The notes beneath the pieces are model-generated. The model saw nothing but the letters and a program-made list of their open reading frames with translations, was not told where the DNA came from and did not search any database. A stretch of DNA of 64,000 nucleotides from an uncultured Spirochaetota bacterium (GTDB lineage: Bacteria; Spirochaetota; UBA4802; UBA5550): assembly GCA_963827275.1 (NCBI GenBank), contig CAWHAA010000002.1, forward strand, positions 160,001 through 224,000. Direction: 5' to 3'. Both the position numbers and the translations under genes were made by a program. Positions 618 to 15,125 of the stretch are shown here, piece after piece; position 1 is the first letter of the stretch; the number at the start of each line of letters is the position of its first letter.

Positions 618-3462
618 ATGCAAAGAAAAATCCTTGATTTTATATTCAACCTGTCGCTGCAGCGCGGGAAATTGCTGCTGGTCATCATGTCGATCATTAC
701 CGTCATCTTCGGCACATTTATCCCCCGGCTTATCATCTCGTCCTCGCAGCAAAACCTGATCCCCGCGGACGATCCGGAGCAGGCGAGATACATCCAGTAT
801 AACAAGGAATTCGGCTCCTCGGACAACCTGATTATCGTCCTCGACGGCGACAGCGACGCGTGCAAGGAGTACGCCGATGATTTTGCGCGGGAGCTCGAAA
901 AGGAGCAGAAATGGGTCAAGTCGGTATTTTACAAGATCGACGCCAGCGTGCTGCTGAAACGGGCGCCGCTGTATGTGCCGGCCGAAGATCTGAACAAGGG
1001 ATTCGAGTTATTGCAGAAGAAGCAGGGGATGATCGAGCGGGTTAAAAATATTTCCAGCCTGTATGCATTGCTCAATGAAATAACGGAAAGCTTTAAAGAG
1101 CCGAACAGTGAAATTTCCATCGAGGCGGCGACGAAAATAATCGCCTTTATCAATACCTTTTTTGCCGAATGGAACGACTGGATCATCAACACGAACCAGA
1201 TCAAGCTGAAAATCGGAGAAAAGATTTCACAGGCGGGGTTCCCGCAAATGGCGATGCTGCAGAGCGAGGGGTACCTGTTTTCCCGCGATTTTAAAATGAT
1301 GTTCCTGCTCGTTCAGCCTAAAGATTACGATGATGAAATAACCTATCTCCGGCCGTTCATGAAGGATATCCGCGCGGCCTGCGACCGGGCGAAACGCACG
1401 CACCCGGAATTACAGGACAAGGTCAAGGTGGCCTTTACCGGGATGCCGGCCCACGTGCTCAACCAGACCGAAATCATTTATTCTGATGTGGGACATGCGG
1501 CGATCGGCTCGGTCGTCATCGTCGCGCTCATTCTCCTCATCGGGTTCCGTTCTATCAAGAAAACCATTGTCGGGGTCATTCCCACCGTTGCGGGGATGGT
1601 CATCTCCCTCGGTATTTTAACGCTCTTCCTCGGGAAGCTGAACCTGATCAGCTCTTCCTTCCTGGCGGTCCTGTTCGGTATCGGGATCGATTTCAGCATC
1701 TATCTCCTCCAGCGAACGGAAGAGGAGCTGGGGAACGGGCTGTCGCAGAATGACGCGATATACAAGTCGGTCGTACTGACCAGCCGGTCCATCATCTCCG
1801 GGGGCCTCACCACGAGCCTCGCGTTCCTTGCGCTGGCGCTTTCAAAGTTCCAGGGGTACTCGGAGCTCGGCTGGGCCGCGGGCATCGGCCTCATCGTCGT
1901 CATGTTCACCACCTTTTTCATGATGCCGGCGCTGCTCATGAATATCCCGGTTGAACCGCGGATGTATCGTGTAAAGGAGACCATCAAGGAAGCGGGTATT
2001 TTAGAAAGGAAAGAAGATACACCTGGTGCTTATCGGCGTGGGCGTCATCATCACCATCGCCAGCATCATAGCCACGACCAGGCTCAAAATGGACTATAAC
2101 ATAATCAAAATGCTGCCGACGAAAACTGAATCCTCTATCTACCAGAACAGGATGGAAGAGGAGAGCGATTACAAGATGTCCTTCGTCATGATAACAGACA
2201 CCGATCTGGTGCGTTTGAAAGAGATCACCGAGAAGGTCAAGGCCCTGCCGACGGTCAGCAAGGTCGAGTCCCTGGCAGACCTCATTCCTTCCGACCAGGA
2301 AAAAAAGATCAGGATCATGAAGAAATTTAAACCGCTCCTCGGTGATTTCCGCATCGGGCTCAGGGACAATGACCAGATCGGCGCGGACTATATCGCCGCG
2401 CTGGACCGGATAAGCGTCTATTTCGAGGAAGCGCAGGAAAAGGCGTTTGCGGGGAGCCAGACCAGGCTGGTGGAGCAGATTGACCTTGTCATGAAAAACA
2501 TCGATGCCATCAAGAAAAAACTCGCGTCGGACAGGACCGGCATGGCCCTGGTACGGACGAGGAAATTCGAGAAGGAGCTTTTCGCGAATCTGGAAAAAGG
2601 GACCCAGCTCATCCGCGAAAGCCTGAACCCGGCCGTTATCACGGAGGCCACGTTCCCGAAAGAGATAATCAGCAGGTTTAAAAGCGAGAAGGGGACCTAT
2701 GTGGCAATGGTGTCACCGAAAGGCTCAATCTGGGATGTTGATTTTCTCGACACGTTCGTGAATGGCCTCAAAAAAATCACTCCGAATGTCACCGGGTTTC
2801 CTGTCACACACCGGGTCTATGTGCGGCAGGCGGCGACTGCGATATTTCAGGCAATGATGTATTCTTTCATTGTTATACTGATACTCCTGATAATTGATTT
2901 CAGGGGCCTCAGGGGGGTGCTCCTCTCCCTGCTCCCGCTCTTCATGGGGATGATGCTCCTCCAGCTGATGATGTTCGTGTTGAGAATTGATTACAATGTC
3001 GCCAATATCGCCGGGCTGCCGCTGCTGCTCGGGCTTGGCGTGGTCTATGGTCTCCGGATCGTGCATCGCTGGAGGGAGGACCCGTCCATTACCGCCTTTG
3101 CCGCGACACAGACAACGGGCAGGGGGCTCGCTTTCGCCGCGTTTGCAATCATAGCAGGCCTCATCAGCATAGTTCCCGCTCGTCATAACGGCGTGTCCTC
3201 TTTCGGCGTGATCCTGCTCATCGGGATCATAACCTGCATGTTCACGGCGCTTATCATTTTACCGGCGATCATCGACTATCTCTATGTCATGAAAAAAGGT
3301 GAAGAGCCGGCGGAGGAAAGCGCCGCGATACCCGCGGCGGACCCGGAGGGAAGAAAGCCGGGGGCCAGGCGCTCGTCAGCGAAGCAGAAAACGAAACCAG
3401 GCGCAAAGAAAAAAACAGCCGTGAAAAAGAAGGCGGCAAAGCCAGCTAAAAAGAAAAAATAG
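618..3462 (+). CDS. MMPL/RND-superfamily transporter (HpnN-like), split by a +1 frameshift near 2010
   Basis: ORFs 618-2099 and 2026-3462 give two MMPL repeats (TGMPA..., LFGIGIDFSIYL; TGFPV..., LLGLGVVYGL). Removing one A from AGGAAAGAAG restores ...ERKKIHLVLIG. Confidence 0.85.
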
Positions 3463-5460: not shown

Positions 5461-6192
5461 ATGATGGATTTTTTTAAAAAAACATCTGCCCTCATTTCCC
5501 TCTTCCTGCTCCTGGCAGGCTTCGCCCCGGCGCACCGCAGCCCTGCGGCATTCGGGGAGATGAGTGCCGCGGGCACGTTTTCATCCTCCATAGCGGGACA
5601 GGATGACAATGTCAGGCGCAATATCATGATCGCGGTCGGGAAGCTGAACGGGGCCCTGATTGCCCCCGGCGCCGTATTTTCATTTAACGATGCCGTGGGG
5701 GAAGGGTCCGCAAAAAACGGCTTCCTGCCGGGAAGGGTACTCTATCGCGACCGCGTGGCCATGGAACCGGGGGGCGGCCTCTGCCAGGTTTCATCAACCC
5801 TTTATAACGCGCTCCTCATGGCGGGCTGCGTAATTATAGAGCGACACCGCCACTTCCAGCCGGTGACGTACGTGCCGCTGGGCCTCGACGCCACCATCAA
5901 ATACGGCAAGAAGGACCTCAGGATTAAAAACCCGTACCGGCACCGCCTGAAAATCGAGATGAGCGCTTCCGATGCGAGTCTCAATGCCCGGGTGCTGTCC
6001 GAAGAAAGGCCGTCGTTCAGGTACGAAATATTCACAGAGGAAGAGGAACTGGCGCTGCCCGCGGCCGATGATGTCGAGAACATACGCCAGGGGATATCGG
6101 TCCATGTGTACCGGAAGCGGTACCGCGGTGATACCCTGCTGGAGAGCGCGCTGCTGTATAAAGATTATTATCCTCCCGTGTACACGCGATGA
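5461..6192 (+). CDS. VanW family protein, exported
   Basis: LNGALIAPGAVFSFN..VG, GGGLCQVSSTLYNA, IIERHRH, YVPLGLDATI, DLRIKN; N-terminal signal peptide. Confidence 0.92.
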   Translation: MMDFFKKTSALISLFLLLAGFAPAHRSPAAFGEMSAAGTFSSSIAGQDDNVRRNIMIAVGKLNGALIAPGAVFSFNDAVGEGSAKNGFLPGRVLYRDRVAMEPGGGLCQVSSTLYNALLMAGCVIIERHRHFQPVTYVPLGLDATIKYGKKDLRIKNPYRHRLKIEMSASDASLNARVLSEERPSFRYEIFTEEEELALPAADDVENIRQGISVHVYRKRYRGDTLLESALLYKDYYPPVYTR

Positions 6193-6205: not shown

Positions 6206-6823
6206 ATGAAGGCGGCAAGGACAGGCGGGCTCGTGATGGCCCTGTTTTTTTTCTTCGCGGCAGGCGGTGACGTTTCCGGCGGCGCCAGCCCGGCCGAAGA
6301 CCCGCTGCTTGCGGAATGGAATGAATTTTCGAAACAACCTGAATGCAAAGCGCTCATGGCATGGCTCCGCCGGCAGGCGCTATCGCGCCTTACCGGCGCG
6401 CGGTGCGACGATCGACTTACGGTATCGACCCCTGACTATTTCGGAAAACTCGGGATGTTCATTACCCTGCAGAAAAAGAAAAAGGTGCGCGGCTGTTACG
6501 GATCGTTTTCGCACGGCATTGATACCATCGAGCCGTTGCTCCGGGATTATCTCGCCGGGGCCCTCACCAGGGACCTCCGGCATGAACCCCTTGACATAGC
6601 TGAATTTCCCGATACCGACATTATCCTGACGGTCACCTCGGCCCCGTTCGCCATTGATGATCCCGGGTCGGTCGACCTGCGCAGGTACGGGATTGTGGTC
6701 GCGTGCGGCGATGACCATGCCGTGTTTGTCCCTGCCGAGATCAGGAGCCTTTCGTCCCTGGAAAAAATAACGGCCGGAAAATCGTGCCAGGTTTCGTCAT
6801 TTGCCGCCGTTACGATTCGGTGA
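6206..6823 (+). CDS. AMMECR1-domain protein with N-terminal signal-like peptide
   Basis: GMFITLQKKKKVRGCYG (xRGCxG motif), D-x-R..PL...E, YGIVV...AVFVP; ATG 6206 after GGGAGG; hydrophobic LVMALFFFFAAG. Confidence 0.8.
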   Translation: MKAARTGGLVMALFFFFAAGGDVSGGASPAEDPLLAEWNEFSKQPECKALMAWLRRQALSRLTGARCDDRLTVSTPDYFGKLGMFITLQKKKKVRGCYGSFSHGIDTIEPLLRDYLAGALTRDLRHEPLDIAEFPDTDIILTVTSAPFAIDDPGSVDLRRYGIVVACGDDHAVFVPAEIRSLSSLEKITAGKSCQVSSFAAVTIR

Positions 6824-6870: not shown

Positions 6871-9800
6871 ATGTGTAAGAAAATATTCTCCTGCCTCATC
6901 CTTGTTTCACTCGGCCTCATCCTCACGCATTGCGATACCGCCGGGGTCAAGCGCCTCGATGACGGGCGGAGCATATATCTGTCTGACGGCAAAAAGCTGT
7001 CGGCTAAAACGGGTATTGAGGGACACGTCATAGATGCAAAGACGAAGAAGGGGATACGGGACGCGCAGGTTGAAATGAAAAACGCCAACATGGGAGTCGG
7101 GTATTATACGCGTGAGACCGACCGGAACGGCTATTTCAAAATAGAGGATTTCATCCCGTATGTCAGGTACTCCGTCGAAGCCACAGCGAAAGGGTACGTA
7201 ACGTACCGGTCGACCGGACCGGTGACGGGAGGAAGCCATACATTTGCGCTGGCGCCGGAATCGCGGCTGAGCGGCACCGTCAGGAACAGGAAGGGAGAGC
7301 CGCTCCTGGGTGTGGAGGTTAAGCTCACCGCGTACGATGAACCGACGGAGGAGGGAGAGAACATCGTTTCACGTGCGCCGCGTATCGCCGCGACGGACGG
7401 CAATGGATCCTACGGGTTCGACAAGCTTCCCGCCGGCTCATACACGGTCCTGTTCACCTTCCCCGGGTGCATCAGTGAAACGGCGCAGGTGCGGAACATC
7501 AAGGAAGGCGAGAGCTTTGATCTTCCCATGGTAATGACGCGGCCCGCATCGGTGATGGGGAACGTTGTAATAGAGGGGCTCAACTCTCCGGCGATCAACG
7601 TGGACGTCTCAATCGAGGGACAGGTGACCCAGTCCGCGGCGACATTCCAGGACGGTACCTACCGGCTGGATGACGTAAAGCCGGGCACGTACAAGATGAC
7701 CGTCGCACACCAGGGGTTTTATGAGCTGACCGCGCATACGATAAAAATAAGCGAAGGTGAAAAGCGGGAGAACGTGAATTTTACCGTGAAGGCGAAGGAG
7801 CCCCAGGTCCAGGTATACGCGTACCGGTACACCTTTGCGCCGGGAGATGCCATTGAGTTCAATGTGCGCTCGTTGAGGCTGGAGACCCTGAAGGCGACAG
7901 TATACCGGGTGCCGATCGATATTCTGGTGCGGGGCGGGGTCGATGCGGACAGGCTTGATCCTGCGGCCGAGGGCTTCAAGGCGCTCTTCTCGTGGGACGA
8001 GCCGGTCAGGGAATTCGAACCCTATGAATGGCGGTACCAGTCGGTACAGGTGAAGAACCCCCTTTCCACCGGGGGCTACTGCATCGAGGTCAGGGGCGCG
8101 GGCAGGGTGATCAGCAGGAAGTTTTTCTCTCTTACCACCGTCGGGGTAGTGATGAAGCGCTCCCGGGAATCGGTCTTTGCCTATGTCACCAGCCTCGTGG
8201 ACAATACGCCCATCCCGGACGCACGCGTGGTGCTGTTCGATACCACGCCGCAAAAAAAGAAAGGGAAGAAGGCGACCTATGATCCGCCTGACCAGGTGGA
8301 GGACCTTCCCGTAAAAGCGCTGCTCCAGGGGAAAACGGACCGGGACGGCATCTGCCACAAGGGCTTCAGATCTGACCGGCATATTTCCGCGATCGTCATA
8401 GCCGGTGATGGCAGTTACGCCATCTGCAATACCGGGTCGCCGTCGTCGTTTGAGAAGGAGCAAAAGAAATATTTCATATACACTGACCGGCCCGTGTACC
8501 GGGCGGGAGACGCGGTGCATTACAAGATCATTGCGAAAAACCGCGAGCGGCGGTTCGTGCCGGTCGCCGGCGAGCGGTTGTATTACAGGATCGTGAACCG
8601 CGACATGGCAAAGACGGTCGCCGAAGGGGAAATGACGCTCGATGACTGGGGCACTGCGGACGGGGCACTGGCGCTGTCACGCGAAGCCCACCTCGGCGTG
8701 CATGAAATCATGGCGGGGCCGACGGTGAAAAACCTCTATAGCAGGGGGCGGTTCTATGTCGAGCAATACCGGAAGCCGGAATTCATCATAAAAATTATAC
8801 CGTCAAAAGATTATTTCATCAACGGCGACACGACCGAATTCAAGGTCGAATCGAAGTACTTTTTCGGCGCGCCGCTCAAAGGGGCCCTGGTGCAGTATCG
8901 GTTTTATGAAACGCGGCTCAGGGACGCCAACACCACCTACTGGTGGGAGCGCGATTATGGCGACAGCGCGCCGTACAACCGCATCGTCCTTGAAGGGGAA
9001 AAGTACGCCGATGACGAAGGGGTCGCCGTGCTGCGGCTCCATGCCGGGAACCTTCCCTATGACCGGGAGATCACCTGCGAGGCCACGGTGGTGGACCGCT
9101 CCAATGTCAGCATCACGGCCTCCGGCACGGTACGGATCGGGCGCGGGGAATATTACATCAAGATAGAACCGACCCGGAATTTTTTCGCCGCCGGCGAGAA
9201 AAAGGTCGTGGCGGTAAAGACCATGACCCATACCGGGAAACCGCTCAGTGCCCGGGTGAAGGTGGAGCTCTTCCGGTATATATGGAAGCCGTGGGAGCGG
9301 GTGTATGTCCATGACAGCAGGCCGCTCTATTCGGAAACGGCGACAACCGACAGCAGGGGGGCCGTGCTCATCGAGCTGCCGAAACAGTTCAGCCTGTACG
9401 GCGAATTTGACATGGTGGTCACCGGCACTGACCGGAGGGAAAACCGGATCACCGCGTCGCGGGTCATCTGGGTCTACGGTGCGGAGGGGTCAGCGGTGGC
9501 GTCGCGCTTTAAAAACCTGGAGCTGACCCTGGACACGGACGAGATGGCGAAGCCGGGCGAGGTCACCTGCCTCGTCAAGAGCTGCTTCACCGATGCGTAT
9601 GTGTGCCTCACCCTTGAAGGGAGGGACGTGTATGAATCGAAGGTCGTTAAAATGACGGGCAACATCGTCCCGGTGAAGTTCACCGTCAAAGAGGCGTACG
9701 CGCCGAACCTGTACGTGACCGCGTCCATGCAGCGGAAGCGGGCCCTCTATACCGAATCGGCCGGGATAACCATCCCCGTCAATGACACGGAGCTCTCCCT

Positions 9801-12246
9801 GTCCATTGAAACTGACAGGCAGAAATACCGGCCGGGCGATACGACGGTAGCGACGCTCAGGGCGCGTGACGGAAGCGGCGCGCCGGTCAGGGCCGACCTT
9901 TCCGTTGCGGCGGTGGACGAGGCGGTATTCCAGGTGCGGCATGACCACACCCCGCCCATGAAGGACTTCTTTTACTCGAAAATATCAAACTGGGTGCTGA
10001 CCAGCTATTCCTACCCGGTGACCCTGCTTGCCGGCGCCGCCAAGGTCGGCGGCGCAATAAAGGTGCGGGAGAAGTTTGAGGACACCGCGTTCTGGGCGGC
10101 GAAGGTCAGGACCGATGCCGACGGCGCCGCGCGGGTGAGCTTCACCCTCCCTGATAACCTGACGACGTGGCGCCTCACTGCGCGGGGACACGACAGGACG
10201 GGCCGGGTCGGGGAGATGCGCGCATCATTCCCGGTCACGCAGGACCTGATCGCGCGCATCGGGAAGCCGCGGTTCATGGTGGAGGGCGACACCATGGCGC
10301 TTATCGGCATTGTCAACAGCAATACCGGGAGGGGGCTCAGGCAGGTGGCGACCGAGCTGAAGGCCGACGGAACAGAGCTCCAGCCTGATGAAAAAACCGC
10401 CATCAGCCTTCCCGCGTTCGGGTCGGCGCGGCAGTACTATTTATACAAAGTGCCAAAAGAGAAGCGGGAGGTGACTCTCCAGTATACGGCGCGGGCAGAC
10501 CGGGAAGCCTCCGACGCGCTCACGCTGCCGGTCCCGGTTGAGCGGCGCGGCACTTCGTTCAAGCTCTTCGGCATCGGGGACATGGCGGGGAATAAAAGCG
10601 TGGTCATCGCGCCGCTTGCGGATACGGACGATTTCTCCTTCGTGCCGGAATCGGCGACCGTGTCGCTGAACCCCTCCCCGATAATCCAGATGCTCCGCGC
10701 GGCTGATTTCCTGAGCGAGTATCCTTACGGGTGCGTGGAACAGACACTGAACAGCTTTATCCCTAACCTCGCGCTGCAGAGGATGCTCCGGCAGAAGGGA
10801 TACGCCGGGTTCATCAGCGACAGGGCGAAGAAAAAGCTTGAAGACAAGGCCGGCGCGGGCCTCGCGCGCGTGCAGCAGCAGCAGAACGACGACGGGACCT
10901 GGGGCTGGTGGTCCGGGGACCGGGGCAACGGTTCCGTGACCGGGTACGTCCTGTATTCGCTCTACCTTGCTCGCGCGTCAGGCTACGCGGTGGACAAGGA
11001 GCGCGTTGCACGGGGCCTGGAGGCCGTTACCAGGTATTTAAAGAATCCCACGGTCGAGGAATGGGACGAGATATCCTACCTTATCTATATCAATGCGCTC
11101 TGGGGCCGCTGGGACCATGATGTTTTTCTCAGGGCGATGAAGGCGGGCGAACCGGGCGCGTACCGCCTGGCCTGTCTCCTGAAAGCGTTGTCACTCGCCC
11201 GTTCGCATGAGAAATTGGGTGAAGAGATGAAAAACGACATCAACGCCGCCATGCCCCGGCTCAGGGATTCGCTCCTGGCCCTGGCGAAAAAGGACGGACG
11301 CGGGATCTACTGGGGGAGCAGGGAACAAGACCGTTGGAGCTGGCCGGGCGGGGACCCGGAAGTGACGGCGCATGTGCTCTCCGCGCTGGTGGCATCGGGC
11401 GACCGGACGACCCTGCCGGCCCAGATCGTCAGCTCGCTCTGCGGCCGTGGACGCGGCGAGGCCTGGAATTCAACAAAAGAGACGGGGACCGTCATGCTGG
11501 CCCTGTGCGGATATATTGAAGCGACCGCCGGCGCCGCCGTACCGAAGGGTACGGTGCGCTTTGCCATGGACGGCAGGACAATCGCCGACATTCCCTATGA
11601 TCTTGAAAAGCCCGGGGACCCTGAACGGTACACCAGAAAAATTTCCCTTGCCGGGAGCGCGCCGCGCTCCTCGTTCGCCATCGCGGCGGACGGGAACGCC
11701 GGCGCGGACGTAAGCTTCCAGGTCGTGATTGACGGGACGCTCTATTTCAGGGAGAAGGGATTGTCCCTTCTGAAATCGGAAGAGCGGGGCATCGGCGCTC
11801 TTTCAAACGGCATCACAATCACCAGGACCTTTGCCGCCATCACCAGGGTCCGCGATGCGCATAATAACGAGTACATGGTGCCGCAGAGCCTTGACGGGAC
11901 CAGGGCGGTCCAGGTGGGGGACGAGATGCTGGTAAAGGTGAAATTCTCTGTGCAGGACGACTTCCAGTACCTGGTGCTGGAGGACTATCTCCCCTCGGGA
12001 TTCGAGGTGACCAGGAACAGCGCCTACGACGACTACCGGCCGTATGTTCACATGGAGCGGAGGGACAACCGGATGGTGTATTTCTTCACCGGCCTCAAGA
12101 AGAACGAGGCATACGAGATCGCCTATGTGATTCGGGCCGAGCTGCCGGGGAATTTCATGGTTCGGCCGTCGCGGATGGAATGCATGTACGAGCCGACCAT
12201 CCAGGGGTGGGCGGCGCCGGCCGTTGTTGAAGTGAAGAAAAAATAG
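6871..12246 (+). CDS. Alpha-2-macroglobulin family lipoprotein with intact thioester motif and N-terminal carboxypeptidase-regulatory-like repeats
   Basis: YTDRPVYRAG, FYVEQYRKPEF, LSVAAVDEAV, VREKFEDTAFW, LPDNLTTWR, YPYGCVEQ, QNDDGTWGWW, LEDYLPSGFE, MYEP; lipobox-like LILTHC. Confidence 0.95.
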   Translation: MCKKIFSCLILVSLGLILTHCDTAGVKRLDDGRSIYLSDGKKLSAKTGIEGHVIDAKTKKGIRDAQVEMKNANMGVGYYTRETDRNGYFKIEDFIPYVRYSVEATAKGYVTYRSTGPVTGGSHTFALAPESRLSGTVRNRKGEPLLGVEVKLTAYDEPTEEGENIVSRAPRIAATDGNGSYGFDKLPAGSYTVLFTFPGCISETAQVRNIKEGESFDLPMVMTRPASVMGNVVIEGLNSPAINVDVSIEGQVTQSAATFQDGTYRLDDVKPGTYKMTVAHQGFYELTAHTIKISEGEKRENVNFTVKAKEPQVQVYAYRYTFAPGDAIEFNVRSLRLETLKATVYRVPIDILVRGGVDADRLDPAAEGFKALFSWDEPVREFEPYEWRYQSVQVKNPLSTGGYCIEVRGAGRVISRKFFSLTTVGVVMKRSRESVFAYVTSLVDNTPIPDARVVLFDTTPQKKKGKKATYDPPDQVEDLPVKALLQGKTDRDGICHKGFRSDRHISAIVIAGDGSYAICNTGSPSSFEKEQKKYFIYTDRPVYRAGDAVHYKIIAKNRERRFVPVAGERLYYRIVNRDMAKTVAEGEMTLDDWGTADGALALSREAHLGVHEIMAGPTVKNLYSRGRFYVEQYRKPEFIIKIIPSKDYFINGDTTEFKVESKYFFGAPLKGALVQYRFYETRLRDANTTYWWERDYGDSAPYNRIVLEGEKYADDEGVAVLRLHAGNLPYDREITCEATVVDRSNVSITASGTVRIGRGEYYIKIEPTRNFFAAGEKKVVAVKTMTHTGKPLSARVKVELFRYIWKPWERVYVHDSRPLYSETATTDSRGAVLIELPKQFSLYGEFDMVVTGTDRRENRITASRVIWVYGAEGSAVASRFKNLELTLDTDEMAKPGEVTCLVKSCFTDAYVCLTLEGRDVYESKVVKMTGNIVPVKFTVKEAYAPNLYVTASMQRKRALYTESAGITIPVNDTELSLSIETDRQKYRPGDTTVATLRARDGSGAPVRADLSVAAVDEAVFQVRHDHTPPMKDFFYSKISNWVLTSYSYPVTLLAGAAKVGGAIKVREKFEDTAFWAAKVRTDADGAARVSFTLPDNLTTWRLTARGHDRTGRVGEMRASFPVTQDLIARIGKPRFMVEGDTMALIGIVNSNTGRGLRQVATELKADGTELQPDEKTAISLPAFGSARQYYLYKVPKEKREVTLQYTARADREASDALTLPVPVERRGTSFKLFGIGDMAGNKSVVIAPLADTDDFSFVPESATVSLNPSPIIQMLRAADFLSEYPYGCVEQTLNSFIPNLALQRMLRQKGYAGFISDRAKKKLEDKAGAGLARVQQQQNDDGTWGWWSGDRGNGSVTGYVLYSLYLARASGYAVDKERVARGLEAVTRYLKNPTVEEWDEISYLIYINALWGRWDHDVFLRAMKAGEPGAYRLACLLKALSLARSHEKLGEEMKNDINAAMPRLRDSLLALAKKDGRGIYWGSREQDRWSWPGGDPEVTAHVLSALVASGDRTTLPAQIVSSLCGRGRGEAWNSTKETGTVMLALCGYIEATAGAAVPKGTVRFAMDGRTIADIPYDLEKPGDPERYTRKISLAGSAPRSSFAIAADGNAGADVSFQVVIDGTLYFREKGLSLLKSEERGIGALSNGITITRTFAAITRVRDAHNNEYMVPQSLDGTRAVQVGDEMLVKVKFSVQDDFQYLVLEDYLPSGFEVTRNSAYDDYRPYVHMERRDNRMVYFFTGLKKNEAYEIAYVIRAELPGNFMVRPSRMECMYEPTIQGWAAPAVVEVKKK

Positions 12247-12257
12247 AGGGTGCGCAT

Positions 12258-12470
12258 ATGAAACCAAAGACAATACTCATTATCGTGATCGTCGTGCTCC
12301 TGACGATATTCGCGATGCAGAATACCCACGCGGTCGTTGTCAATATGCTGTTCTGGCATCCGGATTTTCCCCTGATTATCCTGGTGCTGGTGTTATTGGG
12401 CGCAGGGCTTGTCGCGGGATACCTTGCGGGGGGTGCCGCCCAGGTCAAGAAGAAGGAAAAAGAGTATTAG
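12258..12470 (+). CDS. LapA (lipopolysaccharide assembly protein A)-domain small membrane protein
   Basis: IFAMQNT..V.VN.LFW...PL..L pattern; two TM segments; 70 aa. Confidence 0.8.
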   Translation: MKPKTILIIVIVVLLTIFAMQNTHAVVVNMLFWHPDFPLIILVLVLLGAGLVAGYLAGGAAQVKKKEKEY

Positions 12471-12473
12471 CGC

Positions 12474-14549
12474 GTGAGAAGGCTGCTCCCTGCGCTCATC
12501 ATTGCCGTCATCGCGCTTTCCGCTCCCATGCGGGCGGCGGATGATGCCGATCCGGTCGTCGTCGTGCGGGTCCTTTCAAAGCAGGTCCGCCTTTTAAGCG
12601 AGGGCGTATTGGAAGAGATCGTCATATCGGCGGATGATGATGCGGCAATCATTGATGAGATCATGCACCGGCAGGAGCGCGGGAAGAGCATCACGATCAG
12701 AATGGATAACGGCGTGCCCCGCGTTGCGATAGACGCACAGCCCGTGACGGGTCCGATCGCGCTCTCGATCAGGCCCGGGCCGGACGGCGGCACCTGCAGG
12801 GTCAGGCTTTCGTCCGAGGAGCGTACCTTCCCGCTCCCCTTTTCCATCACGGGCAGTCAAGGGGAGCTCCGGTGTCACGTGCGGGAGCGGCTCTCCCGGT
12901 ACGCGGTCGATTCAGCCCTCGCGGAATACGGCGGGGAATTCCGGGATGACCGGGAAGCGGTGCTGGCGCTTGCCCATGTCATCAGGGCGCGGTATTTTTT
13001 CATGAAACGGGCGCCGGCTCACGGCGACGCGGATTTTTGCGACCTGGCGCACTGCCAGGCGTACCGGGGCAGGATACGGGGCGGGGCCCCGCTTGGCGAT
13101 GGATGGACCATTGACCACGAAAAACTTTCAAAGAACCTTTTCTTCAATTCTCGCTGCGGCGGGAGCATCTTCAGCGACAGCGTGTTCGGCAGAGGACCGC
13201 GCCCAGCCGCGGCGGCACCGGCCGCCAGGGACTGGCTCTACCGCGAGGGGTCCTGGCTCTGCCGTGACGCCGCGTCCCGGTGGGAGTGCACGATACGCGG
13301 TGAGGAACTCGGGCGGATCGTCTTCCCGGAGCGCGGCGCGAGCGGGACAGGCGCGCCGCGCTTTGAATATGACCGGGGGATGCTGGTTGTCCGTGTTCGC
13401 GGCGGCGGGAGCGGGACAGTCATCCCCGTGGAGACCTTCAGGCTTACGGTAAACCGTGTCCGGGGATGGAATTTCATAAAGAGCAATAACTTCGAGATGA
13501 CTGAAGAGTCGGAGGGTGAAGGAACGCGGTACCGGTTCCGGGGGGAGGGGCTGGGTCACGGTGCCGGTCTCTGCCAGCACGGCGCCGCCGCCCTGTCGCG
13601 GCGCGGGTACAATCGCTACGAGATAATAGAACACTATTTCCCTGACCTGCAGTTTCGGGCGCCCCGGAACAAACCGGCCCTGCCGCCGGGACTCTCATAC
13701 TGTATTGTTGACCTGGCCTCGGGAAACCCCCTGGAAATGAGCCACGGCCGCGACTTTTTAAAGAGAAGGGTGCCTCCCGGTTCCATCTTCAAGCTCATCG
13801 TTGCGCTGTATCTCGCGGCTGAACGCCCGGACCTCTTCTACGATTATACCTATGACTGTGCCGGAAAAAACAGAGGCGACCATCGCATGCCGGACCGGTG
13901 CTGGGACCCGGCCGGACACGGCACGGTCAGGATAGGGGATGCGGTGGCGCATTCGTGCAATCTATATTTTGCGTCGCTCTATGACAAAATACCGGAAAAG
14001 AGATTCAGGATCTTTTATGAACGCCTGTCCCGCTCCCTCGGGATATCGTCCGTGCTGCCGGAGGTCGCGGATGAGCGCGGCTGGTCGAAGCTCCTTGCAG
14101 GACTCGATTCCCGGCTGTCATTCCCGGTGGGTGATTATATCCGCCTTGCGATGTACCTGGATTGCGACCGGCGCCCAGAAGGGTATGAGAAACAGGACCC
14201 GGCCGGCCCGGCGCTCCCCGAGCGGAGAGCGCTATTCAAGTCAATGAAGCGCCTGTTTGTCGACGGGACTGCCTCACGTCGGTCAAAGGACCCGGCCGGG
14301 CGCGGTACTGACGGCATCCTCGAGCAATGGGAGGGGCGCGTTCTCGCATCGGGGCGGCATGAGTTCTGGGGAAAGACCGCGACTATCGCAGACGGGACCA
14401 ACAGCGCCCTCGGCTACGGGGTCTTCATCGGCGGGAGCGGCACGACCGGCATTGTCGCTGTCGCCAGGAGGTCGAGCGGGCGGATGGCGGCGCGGTGGGC
14501 GCGGATCGCGCTGATACGCTATATCGATAACGCGCGGCCGTCACGCTGA
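12474..14549 (+). CDS. SpoIID/LytB lytic transglycosylase domain fused to a penicillin-binding transpeptidase-like domain
   Basis: SpoIID: ALAEY, DFCDLAHCQAYRG, GHGAGLCQHGA...IIEHYFP. Transpeptidase: PGSIFK (SxxK), CW...GHG, HSCN (SxN), GKTAT (KTG-like). Signal peptide present. Confidence 0.85.
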   Translation: MRRLLPALIIAVIALSAPMRAADDADPVVVVRVLSKQVRLLSEGVLEEIVISADDDAAIIDEIMHRQERGKSITIRMDNGVPRVAIDAQPVTGPIALSIRPGPDGGTCRVRLSSEERTFPLPFSITGSQGELRCHVRERLSRYAVDSALAEYGGEFRDDREAVLALAHVIRARYFFMKRAPAHGDADFCDLAHCQAYRGRIRGGAPLGDGWTIDHEKLSKNLFFNSRCGGSIFSDSVFGRGPRPAAAAPAARDWLYREGSWLCRDAASRWECTIRGEELGRIVFPERGASGTGAPRFEYDRGMLVVRVRGGGSGTVIPVETFRLTVNRVRGWNFIKSNNFEMTEESEGEGTRYRFRGEGLGHGAGLCQHGAAALSRRGYNRYEIIEHYFPDLQFRAPRNKPALPPGLSYCIVDLASGNPLEMSHGRDFLKRRVPPGSIFKLIVALYLAAERPDLFYDYTYDCAGKNRGDHRMPDRCWDPAGHGTVRIGDAVAHSCNLYFASLYDKIPEKRFRIFYERLSRSLGISSVLPEVADERGWSKLLAGLDSRLSFPVGDYIRLAMYLDCDRRPEGYEKQDPAGPALPERRALFKSMKRLFVDGTASRRSKDPAGRGTDGILEQWEGRVLASGRHEFWGKTATIADGTNSALGYGVFIGGSGTTGIVAVARRSSGRMAARWARIALIRYIDNARPSR

Positions 14550-15125
14550 GAGCTGCTTCAGCGCGTCCTTGATAATAGTCTCGATCGAGGCAGCAGGATC
14601 GTTTTTTAATACCTCATCAATGACCCGGGATGATTTTGCGTCATCGAAGCCGAGGGTTACCAGCGCTTCGACCGCGTCATTTTTCAGCGTCGGGGGCTCA
14701 CCGGATTGACCGGCATAGTGCGCGAGTTTCTTTATCTTGCGCTTCAGGTCGAAGATCAGCTTCTCTGCCTTGGCCTTGCCGATGCCAGGTATTTTCATCA
14801 GAAGGGCGGCGTTCTCGGTCTGAACCGCTTCGATAAGGCGGCCGATGCTGATGCCGGAGAGGATGGACAGGGCCATGGACGGGCCGATACCGCTGATATT
14901 CAGAAGTATGACGAAGAGGTCCCTCTCATCCTCGGTGGAGAACCCGAAGAGCCTGAACTGATCCTCCCTGTGGAGCGTGTGCACGTACAGGGCCGTTTCT
15001 TCCGATGGCTGGATCTTTTCATAGGTGGTGAGGGGGATACTCAGGCCGTAGCCCACTCCATGCACATCGATGACCACCTCTGTTGGTTTTAACTGATCAA
15101 TTTTTCCTTTTATTTTTGAGATCAT
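14541..15125 (-). CDS. ruvA: Holliday junction branch migration protein RuvA
   Basis: VHGVGY, HREDQFRLFGF, ISGIGPSMAL, IPGIGKAKAEK, ALVTLGF. Confidence 0.97.
   Translation of the reverse strand: MISKIKGKIDQLKPTEVVIDVHGVGYGLSIPLTTYEKIQPSEETALYVHTLHREDQFRLFGFSTEDERDLFVILLNISGIGPSMALSILSGISIGRLIEAVQTENAALLMKIPGIGKAKAEKLIFDLKRKIKKLAHYAGQSGEPPTLKNDAVEALVTLGFDDAKSSRVIDEVLKNDPAASIETIIKDALKQLSA

Follow-up and report, generated by a model that had tools for sequence, protein, structure and literature searches.

Why would a bacterium join a glycan-cleaving SpoIID domain to a penicillin-binding protein (PBP) transpeptidase-like domain, and what would such a protein do beside a macroglobulin? The locus that raises this question lies in a 64,000-nucleotide stretch of DNA from an uncultured Spirochaetota bacterium (contig CAWHAA010000002.1; hereafter the window, whose positions are used throughout). 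The fusion gene and its parts are as follows.

12474..14549, plus strand: SpoIID-transpeptidase fusion gene, one open frame of 691 amino acids
12474..12536, plus strand: probable signal peptide, residues 1-21 (hydropathy scan)
12555..13658, plus strand: predicted SpoIID/LytB-type lytic transglycosylase half, residues 28-395 (fold and profile match)
12924..12926, plus strand: putative catalytic glutamate E151 (kept in 93 of 94 sequences, the remaining row being gapped)
13020..13055, plus strand: SpoIID zinc motif H183, C189, H193 and C194 (aligning to H134, C140, H145 and C146 of C. difficile SpoIID)
13677..14537, plus strand: predicted serine acyl-transferase half with the PBP transpeptidase fold, residues 402-688 (fold, Pfam)
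13782..13793, plus strand: SxxK motif with S437 and K440 (94 of 94)
13857..13961, plus strand: zinc tetrad C462, C476, H482 and C495 (93, 94, 94 and 94 of 94) and SxN motif S494-C-N496
14373..14381, plus strand: third motif K634-T635-A636 (K and T in 94 of 94)

A preliminary description of this DNA placed both domains in a single protein, and the present analysis bears this out. The frame is continuous, both halves are modelled with a pLDDT of 92, one as a SpoIID fold and the other as a PBP transpeptidase fold, and the motifs named at the time are all in place, with SIFK at 13782-13793. The domain calls were thus right, including that of the C-terminal half, which matches the transpeptidase fold in the structure prediction. 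As to whether these might be two separate genes, contigs from three other studies span the gene with zero insertions or deletions, and in two cases a single contig runs across the domain junction. Silent changes make up 29 of the 40 listed differences from these contigs, with 34 further differences lying outside that listing.

The homolog search returned 96 proteins, comprising at least 93 same-order fusions (31-99% identity), two reverse-order fusions and one PBP2; this count is a lower bound from 8000 scored candidates, and a few of the 93 are N-terminally cut. The named same-order members are Spirochaetes bacteria. Residues 1-21 form the sole hydrophobic stretch of the protein in the hydropathy scan and fit a cleaved signal or an anchor alike; the N terminus is hydrophobic in 80 of 94 family members and lipobox-like in three. 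In ten close pairs, taken from 31 genes compared, dN/dS is 0.12-0.30 in the SpoIID half and 0.11-0.31 in the transpeptidase half, so that both halves are under purifying selection in all ten. Such conservation and low dN/dS argue against decay of the fusion, though a domain that only binds would also be conserved.

The SpoIID half, which includes a beta-rich N-terminal part, is recognized by a SpoIID profile (E 9e-12), and its top Foldseek match is 5i1t (E 2.9e-9, TM 0.61 over the target). PF08486 does not match the fusion, and TIGR02669 scores 52.5 bits against a curated cut-off of 83.3; the half is therefore assigned, from sequence, to a divergent branch of the SpoIID/LytB lytic transglycosylases. 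E151 aligns to an invariant glutamate of reverse-order relatives, and through these, rather than by direct alignment, we infer that it is the equivalent of E101 of C. difficile SpoIID. The four C. difficile residues aligned with the zinc motif are reported to be zinc ligands (PMC6221140). Across the 94 sequences, H183 is found in 87, C189 in 93 and C194 in 93, while position 193 is His in 67 or Cys in 26. Three extra cysteines (C228, C263 and C367) are jointly present in 68 of 94 members and jointly absent in the 26 with Cys at 193, and all 23 members with a canonical KTG belong to this latter group. It is possible that the three form a second metal site or a disulfide.

In the transpeptidase half, S437, K440, S494, N496, K634 and T635 are invariant across the 94 aligned sequences, whose mean identity is 39%. 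Only 24 of the 287 positions in this half are invariant, and all six catalytic-motif residues are among them. At the third residue of the KTG motif, position 636, 43 sequences have Ser, 28 have Ala and 23 have Gly; the family tree implies 12 or more substitutions there, mostly between Ser and Ala. Because SxxK, SxN and the K-T pair are invariant and the third residue varies among Ser, Ala and Gly, KTA, judged on these patterns, does not show that the enzyme is dead. The CW...GHG and SCN motifs noted earlier are present, but they are part of a zinc site that the preliminary description missed: the C462/C476/H482/C495 pattern matches, in alignment, the zinc tetrad of C. difficile PBP3 and SpoVD, where one cysteine is reported to be the X of SxN (PMC9334274). 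The pedestal domain of class B PBPs is absent from the fusion, SpoIID occupying the N-terminal half, and the fusion scores far below the cut-offs of the class B profiles TIGR03423 and TIGR02214. One protein (P0130) is a 312-residue stand-alone transpeptidase of the fusion-family type (KTS) with its own signal-like N terminus, possibly a re-split form.

Upstream of the fusion, the gene order in the window is VanW, AMMECR1-like, macroglobulin and a small LapA gene.

5461..6192, plus strand: VanW-domain protein, predicted L,D-transpeptidase (Pfam; Cys (C108), His and Asp motifs)
6206..6823, plus strand: AMMECR1-like protein with a signal-like N terminus (Pfam)
6871..12246, plus strand: alpha-2-macroglobulin of 1791 amino acids, thioester motif CVEQ at 10732-10743 (Pfam, motif)
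12258..12470, plus strand: small membrane protein with a LapA domain, encoded between the macroglobulin and fusion genes (Pfam)

The VanW gene had gone unremarked; its Cys is kept in 29 of 29 copies, its His motif in 29 of 29 and its Asp motif in 28 of 29. The AMMECR1-like frame opens at 5972, with a probable start at 6206, relatives being ~200 residues long. The macroglobulin bears N-terminal carboxypeptidase-regulatory-like domains. Among 35 of the 36 fusion loci, some of which end too early to show all partners, a same-strand macroglobulin lies upstream of the fusion in 28, every one of the 28 with the CxEQ thioester motif; the AMMECR1-like gene is found in 24 of the 35, VanW in 21 and all three partners in 21. 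The LapA-domain gene, present in eight of 35, is probably not part of the core. E. coli queries for YfaT or YfaP found neither in any of the 35 loci, and neither an amidase nor a glycan polymerase gene was identified in the gene run. The fusion is separated from the macroglobulin in seven of the 35 loci, and the macroglobulin is still encoded in all seven genomes.

Several other features of these loci were noted. The AMMECR1-like gene remains a neighbour of the macroglobulin also in genomes that lack the fusion or have it elsewhere. In some relatives the fusion has left the macroglobulin and precedes another gene; in one such locus (L002, 448-3396) flagellar motor and export genes follow it, as read from the translations. 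A 1044-residue frame in another (L055, 5802-8936) only looks like a longer fusion, since it reads through a run of N. The ruvA gene (window 14541-15125) is convergent with the fusion, overlapping its stop by nine bases, and is nearby in only nine of 35 loci. A possible frameshift affects an MMPL-family membrane protein at 618-3462 of the window, whose coding sequence is spread over two overlapping frames (618-2099 and 2026-3462). Lastly, the ~1790-residue macroglobulin ends in lysine in 28 of 44 complete copies (VEVKKK in the window) as against seven of 30 other macroglobulins, counted in loci L034-L068 and L108-L125. With a predicted L,D-transpeptidase in the run, an Lpp-like attachment of the macroglobulin to the wall is conceivable.

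Across 401 genomes of the phylum, the full-length fusion was found in the window's own genome and 36 of its 79 same-order relatives, two more being cut by contig ends, with zero matches in the 321 other genomes searched. All 38 genomes with the fusion have the orthologous macroglobulin, and none of the 33 genomes without this macroglobulin has the fusion; eight of the 46 genomes having the macroglobulin lack the fusion. The preliminary description had suggested that the enzyme replaces PBP1C, and gene position and distribution support this, as the fusion follows a thioester macroglobulin and nearly excludes pbpC. With pbpC-like genes defined by TIGR02073 at E up to 1e-110, a threshold of our choosing, they occur in three of 38 fusion genomes and 26 of 41 without the fusion. 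Above the curated TIGR02073 cut-off the numbers are 0 and 12, and at E up to 1e-60, which probably admits other class A PBPs, six and 31. The pattern recurs inside the window's genus (pbpC in one of nine with the fusion and four of five without) and in other families, though kin are not independent in these counts and the 79 genomes include 12 below the quality bar. Neither gene is found in 15 of 79 genomes.

Where pbpC occurs, it adjoins a different macroglobulin of ~2000 residues, within 4 kb, in 24 of 29 genomes. No pbpC-like match turned up in the window's own genome, which is 92% complete. It has a separate ordinary SpoIID/LytB gene and a second macroglobulin lacking CxEQ; this macroglobulin-like gene of ~2040 residues (G000:C8 ~146000-152150; also L126 and L127) has no pbpC neighbour in the window's genus. 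A class A PBP gene in the same genome (G000:C8:398845-400822) is split into three open frames of 386, 134 and 288 residues, either a broken gene or an assembly error.

Neither ancestry nor chemistry supports a replacement in the strict sense. A tree placing the fused family within the PBP1C clade was rejected (p-AU 1.4e-5), and one placing it with the PBP2 clade was disfavoured (p-AU 0.028). The fusion has no match to TIGR02073 or its glycosyltransferase domain and, having no polymerase, cannot do PBP1C chemistry: PBP1C makes glycan, whereas SpoIID cuts it. In transpeptidase-domain trees the SpoIID-linked proteins stand, with modest support, on one side and the housekeeping PBPs on the other (SH-aLRT 91); in a careful tree using 40 of 85 rows the same branch has support of 81/47, and YfaQ of E. 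coli is a long branch whose position is unfixed.

The nearest relatives of both halves are instead proteins in other arrangements. A profile search of 1.84 billion representatives ranked the fused family first; the rest of the best 150 included SpoIID proteins standing alone and 17 fusions in reverse order, of which some come from Archangium and Cystobacter. The SpoIID halves of the fusion and of the reverse-order relatives align at an HH probability of 100. In the same order, and in other families of the phylum, there are genomes with YfaT, a 1535-residue CxEQ macroglobulin, YfaP, a free transpeptidase gene and a SpoIID gene adjacent to it or 2.5 kb off. Among metagenome loci of at least 8 kb, from the best 80 of 581, a CxEQ macroglobulin is present in 10 of 11 with the transpeptidase-SpoIID pair and in none of the 21 where SpoIID stands alone; no such macroglobulin was seen in 13 shorter loci with the pair.

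Our best explanation, which we put a little short of an even chance, is that the fusion may be an exported peptidoglycan-remodelling enzyme with two active sites that serves the thioester macroglobulin, its serine half trimming stems or cutting links. It would be the equivalent, in one order of spirochaetes, of YfaQ/MagE with swapped domains. Here, S437 would form an acyl-enzyme with D-Ala-D-Ala stems, to be resolved by water as in a DD-carboxy- or endopeptidase. Hydrolysis appears the most likely outcome because the protein has no pedestal, no glycan polymerase adjoins it and KTG is altered. It would loosen cross-links and yield tetrapeptide donors for the neighbouring VanW enzyme; VanW domains are described as L,D-transpeptidases with tetrapeptide donors (PMC11348318) and DD-carboxypeptidases as suppliers of tetrapeptides (PMC13753750), which favours the trimming or link-cutting role. 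Meanwhile, the SpoIID half, through E151, would clear glycan strands stripped of peptides. Together, these activities could clear the wall locally and link it anew at sites where incoming proteases are trapped by the macroglobulin or, alternatively, make room in the wall for the 190 kDa macroglobulin.

Several points weigh against parts of this account. The nearest solved folds are those of cross-linking class B PBPs and not of low-mass hydrolases, and feeding VanW cannot be a general role, since KTG is retained, and a VanW gene is lacking nearby, in the split and reversed relatives. A DD-peptidase, moreover, does not strip stems. C. difficile SpoIID is reported to need prior amidase action (PMC6221140), so the lack of an identified amidase in the gene run counts against the clearing step. 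Service to the macroglobulin is challenged by the seven unlinked loci and the eight genomes with the macroglobulin alone, and its weak point is that MagE is reported to be cytoplasmic and outside the Mag complex.

Trimming is slightly likelier than cross-linking. If the serine half instead were a true DD-transpeptidase, the fusion would be a patch enzyme that seals glycan from housekeeping polymerases into the gaps made by SpoIID, the repair job proposed for PBP1C. The combination of a macroglobulin with repair is in print (PMC5764988), PBP2 and SpoVD of class B are the closest structures and have the zinc tetrad in common, and the near mutual exclusion with pbpC, itself close to another macroglobulin, would fit. 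We nevertheless regard this reading as rather unlikely, given the missing pedestal and polymerase gene, the Ser or Ala in place of the KTG glycine in 71 of 94 members, and the genomes with neither fusion nor pbpC. Pentapeptide donors are also scarce in the mature wall. The same substitution could mean, as the preliminary description allowed, that KTA is disabling and that the transpeptidase half is a pseudo-enzyme, unable to be acylated, which binds stem peptides and aims the SpoIID cutter. The glycine of KTG is probably required on steric grounds, and the decayed motifs of YfaQ (SCG, KTW) suggest that the lineage tolerates loss. This view is weakened, however, by the six motif residues, which do not vary whether a member has KTS, KTA or KTG, by the 23 of 94 members that retain KTG and by the dN/dS of the transpeptidase half, which is not relaxed relative to the SpoIID half; we consider it improbable.

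An ordinary wall hydrolase might simply travel with macroglobulin genes in a mobile block, with no common function, as the unlinked loci, the genomes with macroglobulin alone and the patchy, island-like distribution in one genus (nine of 14 relatives) would allow. It is highly improbable, since the domain pair stays beside macroglobulins of three size classes and in each of three gene architectures, in spirochaetes and elsewhere, and since the seven unlinked genomes all carry the macroglobulin. Most improbable of all is that the C-terminal half protects the periplasm as a beta-lactam trap or weak beta-lactamase: a free-standing exported serine acyl-transferase domain without a pedestal would suit it, but among four relatives and the query there is only one weak Beta-lactamase2 match (E 0.07, in a reversed relative), and the partnership with a glycan cutter and wall enzymes is fixed.

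Returning to the remodelling enzyme, a broader and more speculative proposal, which we think unlikely, is that the locus represents a third bacterial macroglobulin module. This would combine a protease trap with a polymerase-free wall line, in which a KTS/KTA DD-peptidase turns pentapeptides and 4-3 links into VanW donors and the fused SpoIID clears glycan, possibly with a covalent macroglobulin-wall tether through the C-terminal lysine (28 of 44). If true, it would offer a functional alternative to PBP1C and an enzymatic role for YfaQ/MagE. What is at stake is the role of the wall-enzyme partners of macroglobulins, as repair by PBP1C is a hypothesis and YfaQ/MagE, with its decayed motifs, has no assigned activity. 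The fusion family is a better biochemical handle, with both predicted active sites kept, a high-confidence fold and near alternation with pbpC in one order. A PBP-fold enzyme that proved active with Ser or Ala at the KTG glycine would revise the motif rule by which such domains are called dead.

The closest known counterpart, missed in the preliminary description, is YfaQ (E. coli b2226, 'tandem DUF2300'; yfaA-yfaT-yfaS-yfaQ-yfaP run), which has the same domain pair in reverse order. P. aeruginosa MagE (PA4488) is, we presume from its position, the YfaQ counterpart. YfaQ is described as an exported protein with an N-terminal transpeptidase-like and a C-terminal SpoIID-like part, and its deletion gives wider cells that resemble wall-remodelling mutants (10.1101/2025.02.11.637708); for MagE, a cytoplasmic location and absence from the Mag complex are reported (PMC3735191). 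Like the fusion gene, yfaQ directly follows a macroglobulin gene, yfaS. Although the two proteins are alike in content, there are differences: the motifs of the fusion are intact, whereas YfaQ has SLWK, SCG and KTW, and the C-terminal HExxH domain of YfaQ is absent from the fusion, as is any DUF2300 match. The partner macroglobulin of the fusion keeps its thioester, with VanW and AMMECR1-like genes in place of YfaT/YfaP. Direct similarity is marginal (28% over 69 residues, E 0.007). The YfaQ domain pair is already in print; in the literature searched, which misses most subscription journals, we did not find the reversed order, the intact sites, KTS/KTA, the VanW partner or the near exclusion of pbpC.

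The reverse-order relatives (e.g. those of Archangium and Cystobacter annotated 'SpoIID/LytB domain-containing protein') and the split ones, a family unnamed in the libraries searched, have the same SxxK, SCN and zinc residues and CxEQ macroglobulin neighbours. Their KTG is canonical (18 of 18 reverse-order and 10 of 10 split proteins examined), whereas most fusion members have Ser or Ala. An HExxH tail is present in nine of 19 reverse-order proteins, and these relatives have YfaT neighbours, both lacking in the fusion. C. difficile SpoIID (PDB 5i1t/5txu) has the fold, putative catalytic Glu, zinc motif and GHG motif in common with the fusion, which differs in its fused PBP domain, in scoring below the family cut-offs and in having no sporulation context. 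The best sequence and structure matches of the other half are the zinc class B PBPs (C. difficile PBP3 7rd0 and SpoVD 7rcz; A. baumannii PBP2), which share the Cys-Cys-His-Cys tetrad including the Cys of SxN, but the fusion has no pedestal and, in most members, KTS or KTA.

PBP1C, from type I macroglobulin operons (E. coli yfhM-pbpC), is likewise a wall enzyme encoded just after a thioester macroglobulin; the fusion, however, carries a glycan cutter instead of a glycosyltransferase domain, and its transpeptidase domain is not of PBP1C descent. The Type II (Mag/Yfa) operon has a macroglobulin without thioester and YfaA/YfaT/YfaP partners, traits that the fusion locus lacks. In the published accounts, thioester macroglobulins are paired with PBP1C in a proposal of defence plus wall repair, and those without thioester with a six-gene mag run (PMC5764988, PMC3735191, PMC7554673, PMC6131605). 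The fusion locus mixes these two kinds.
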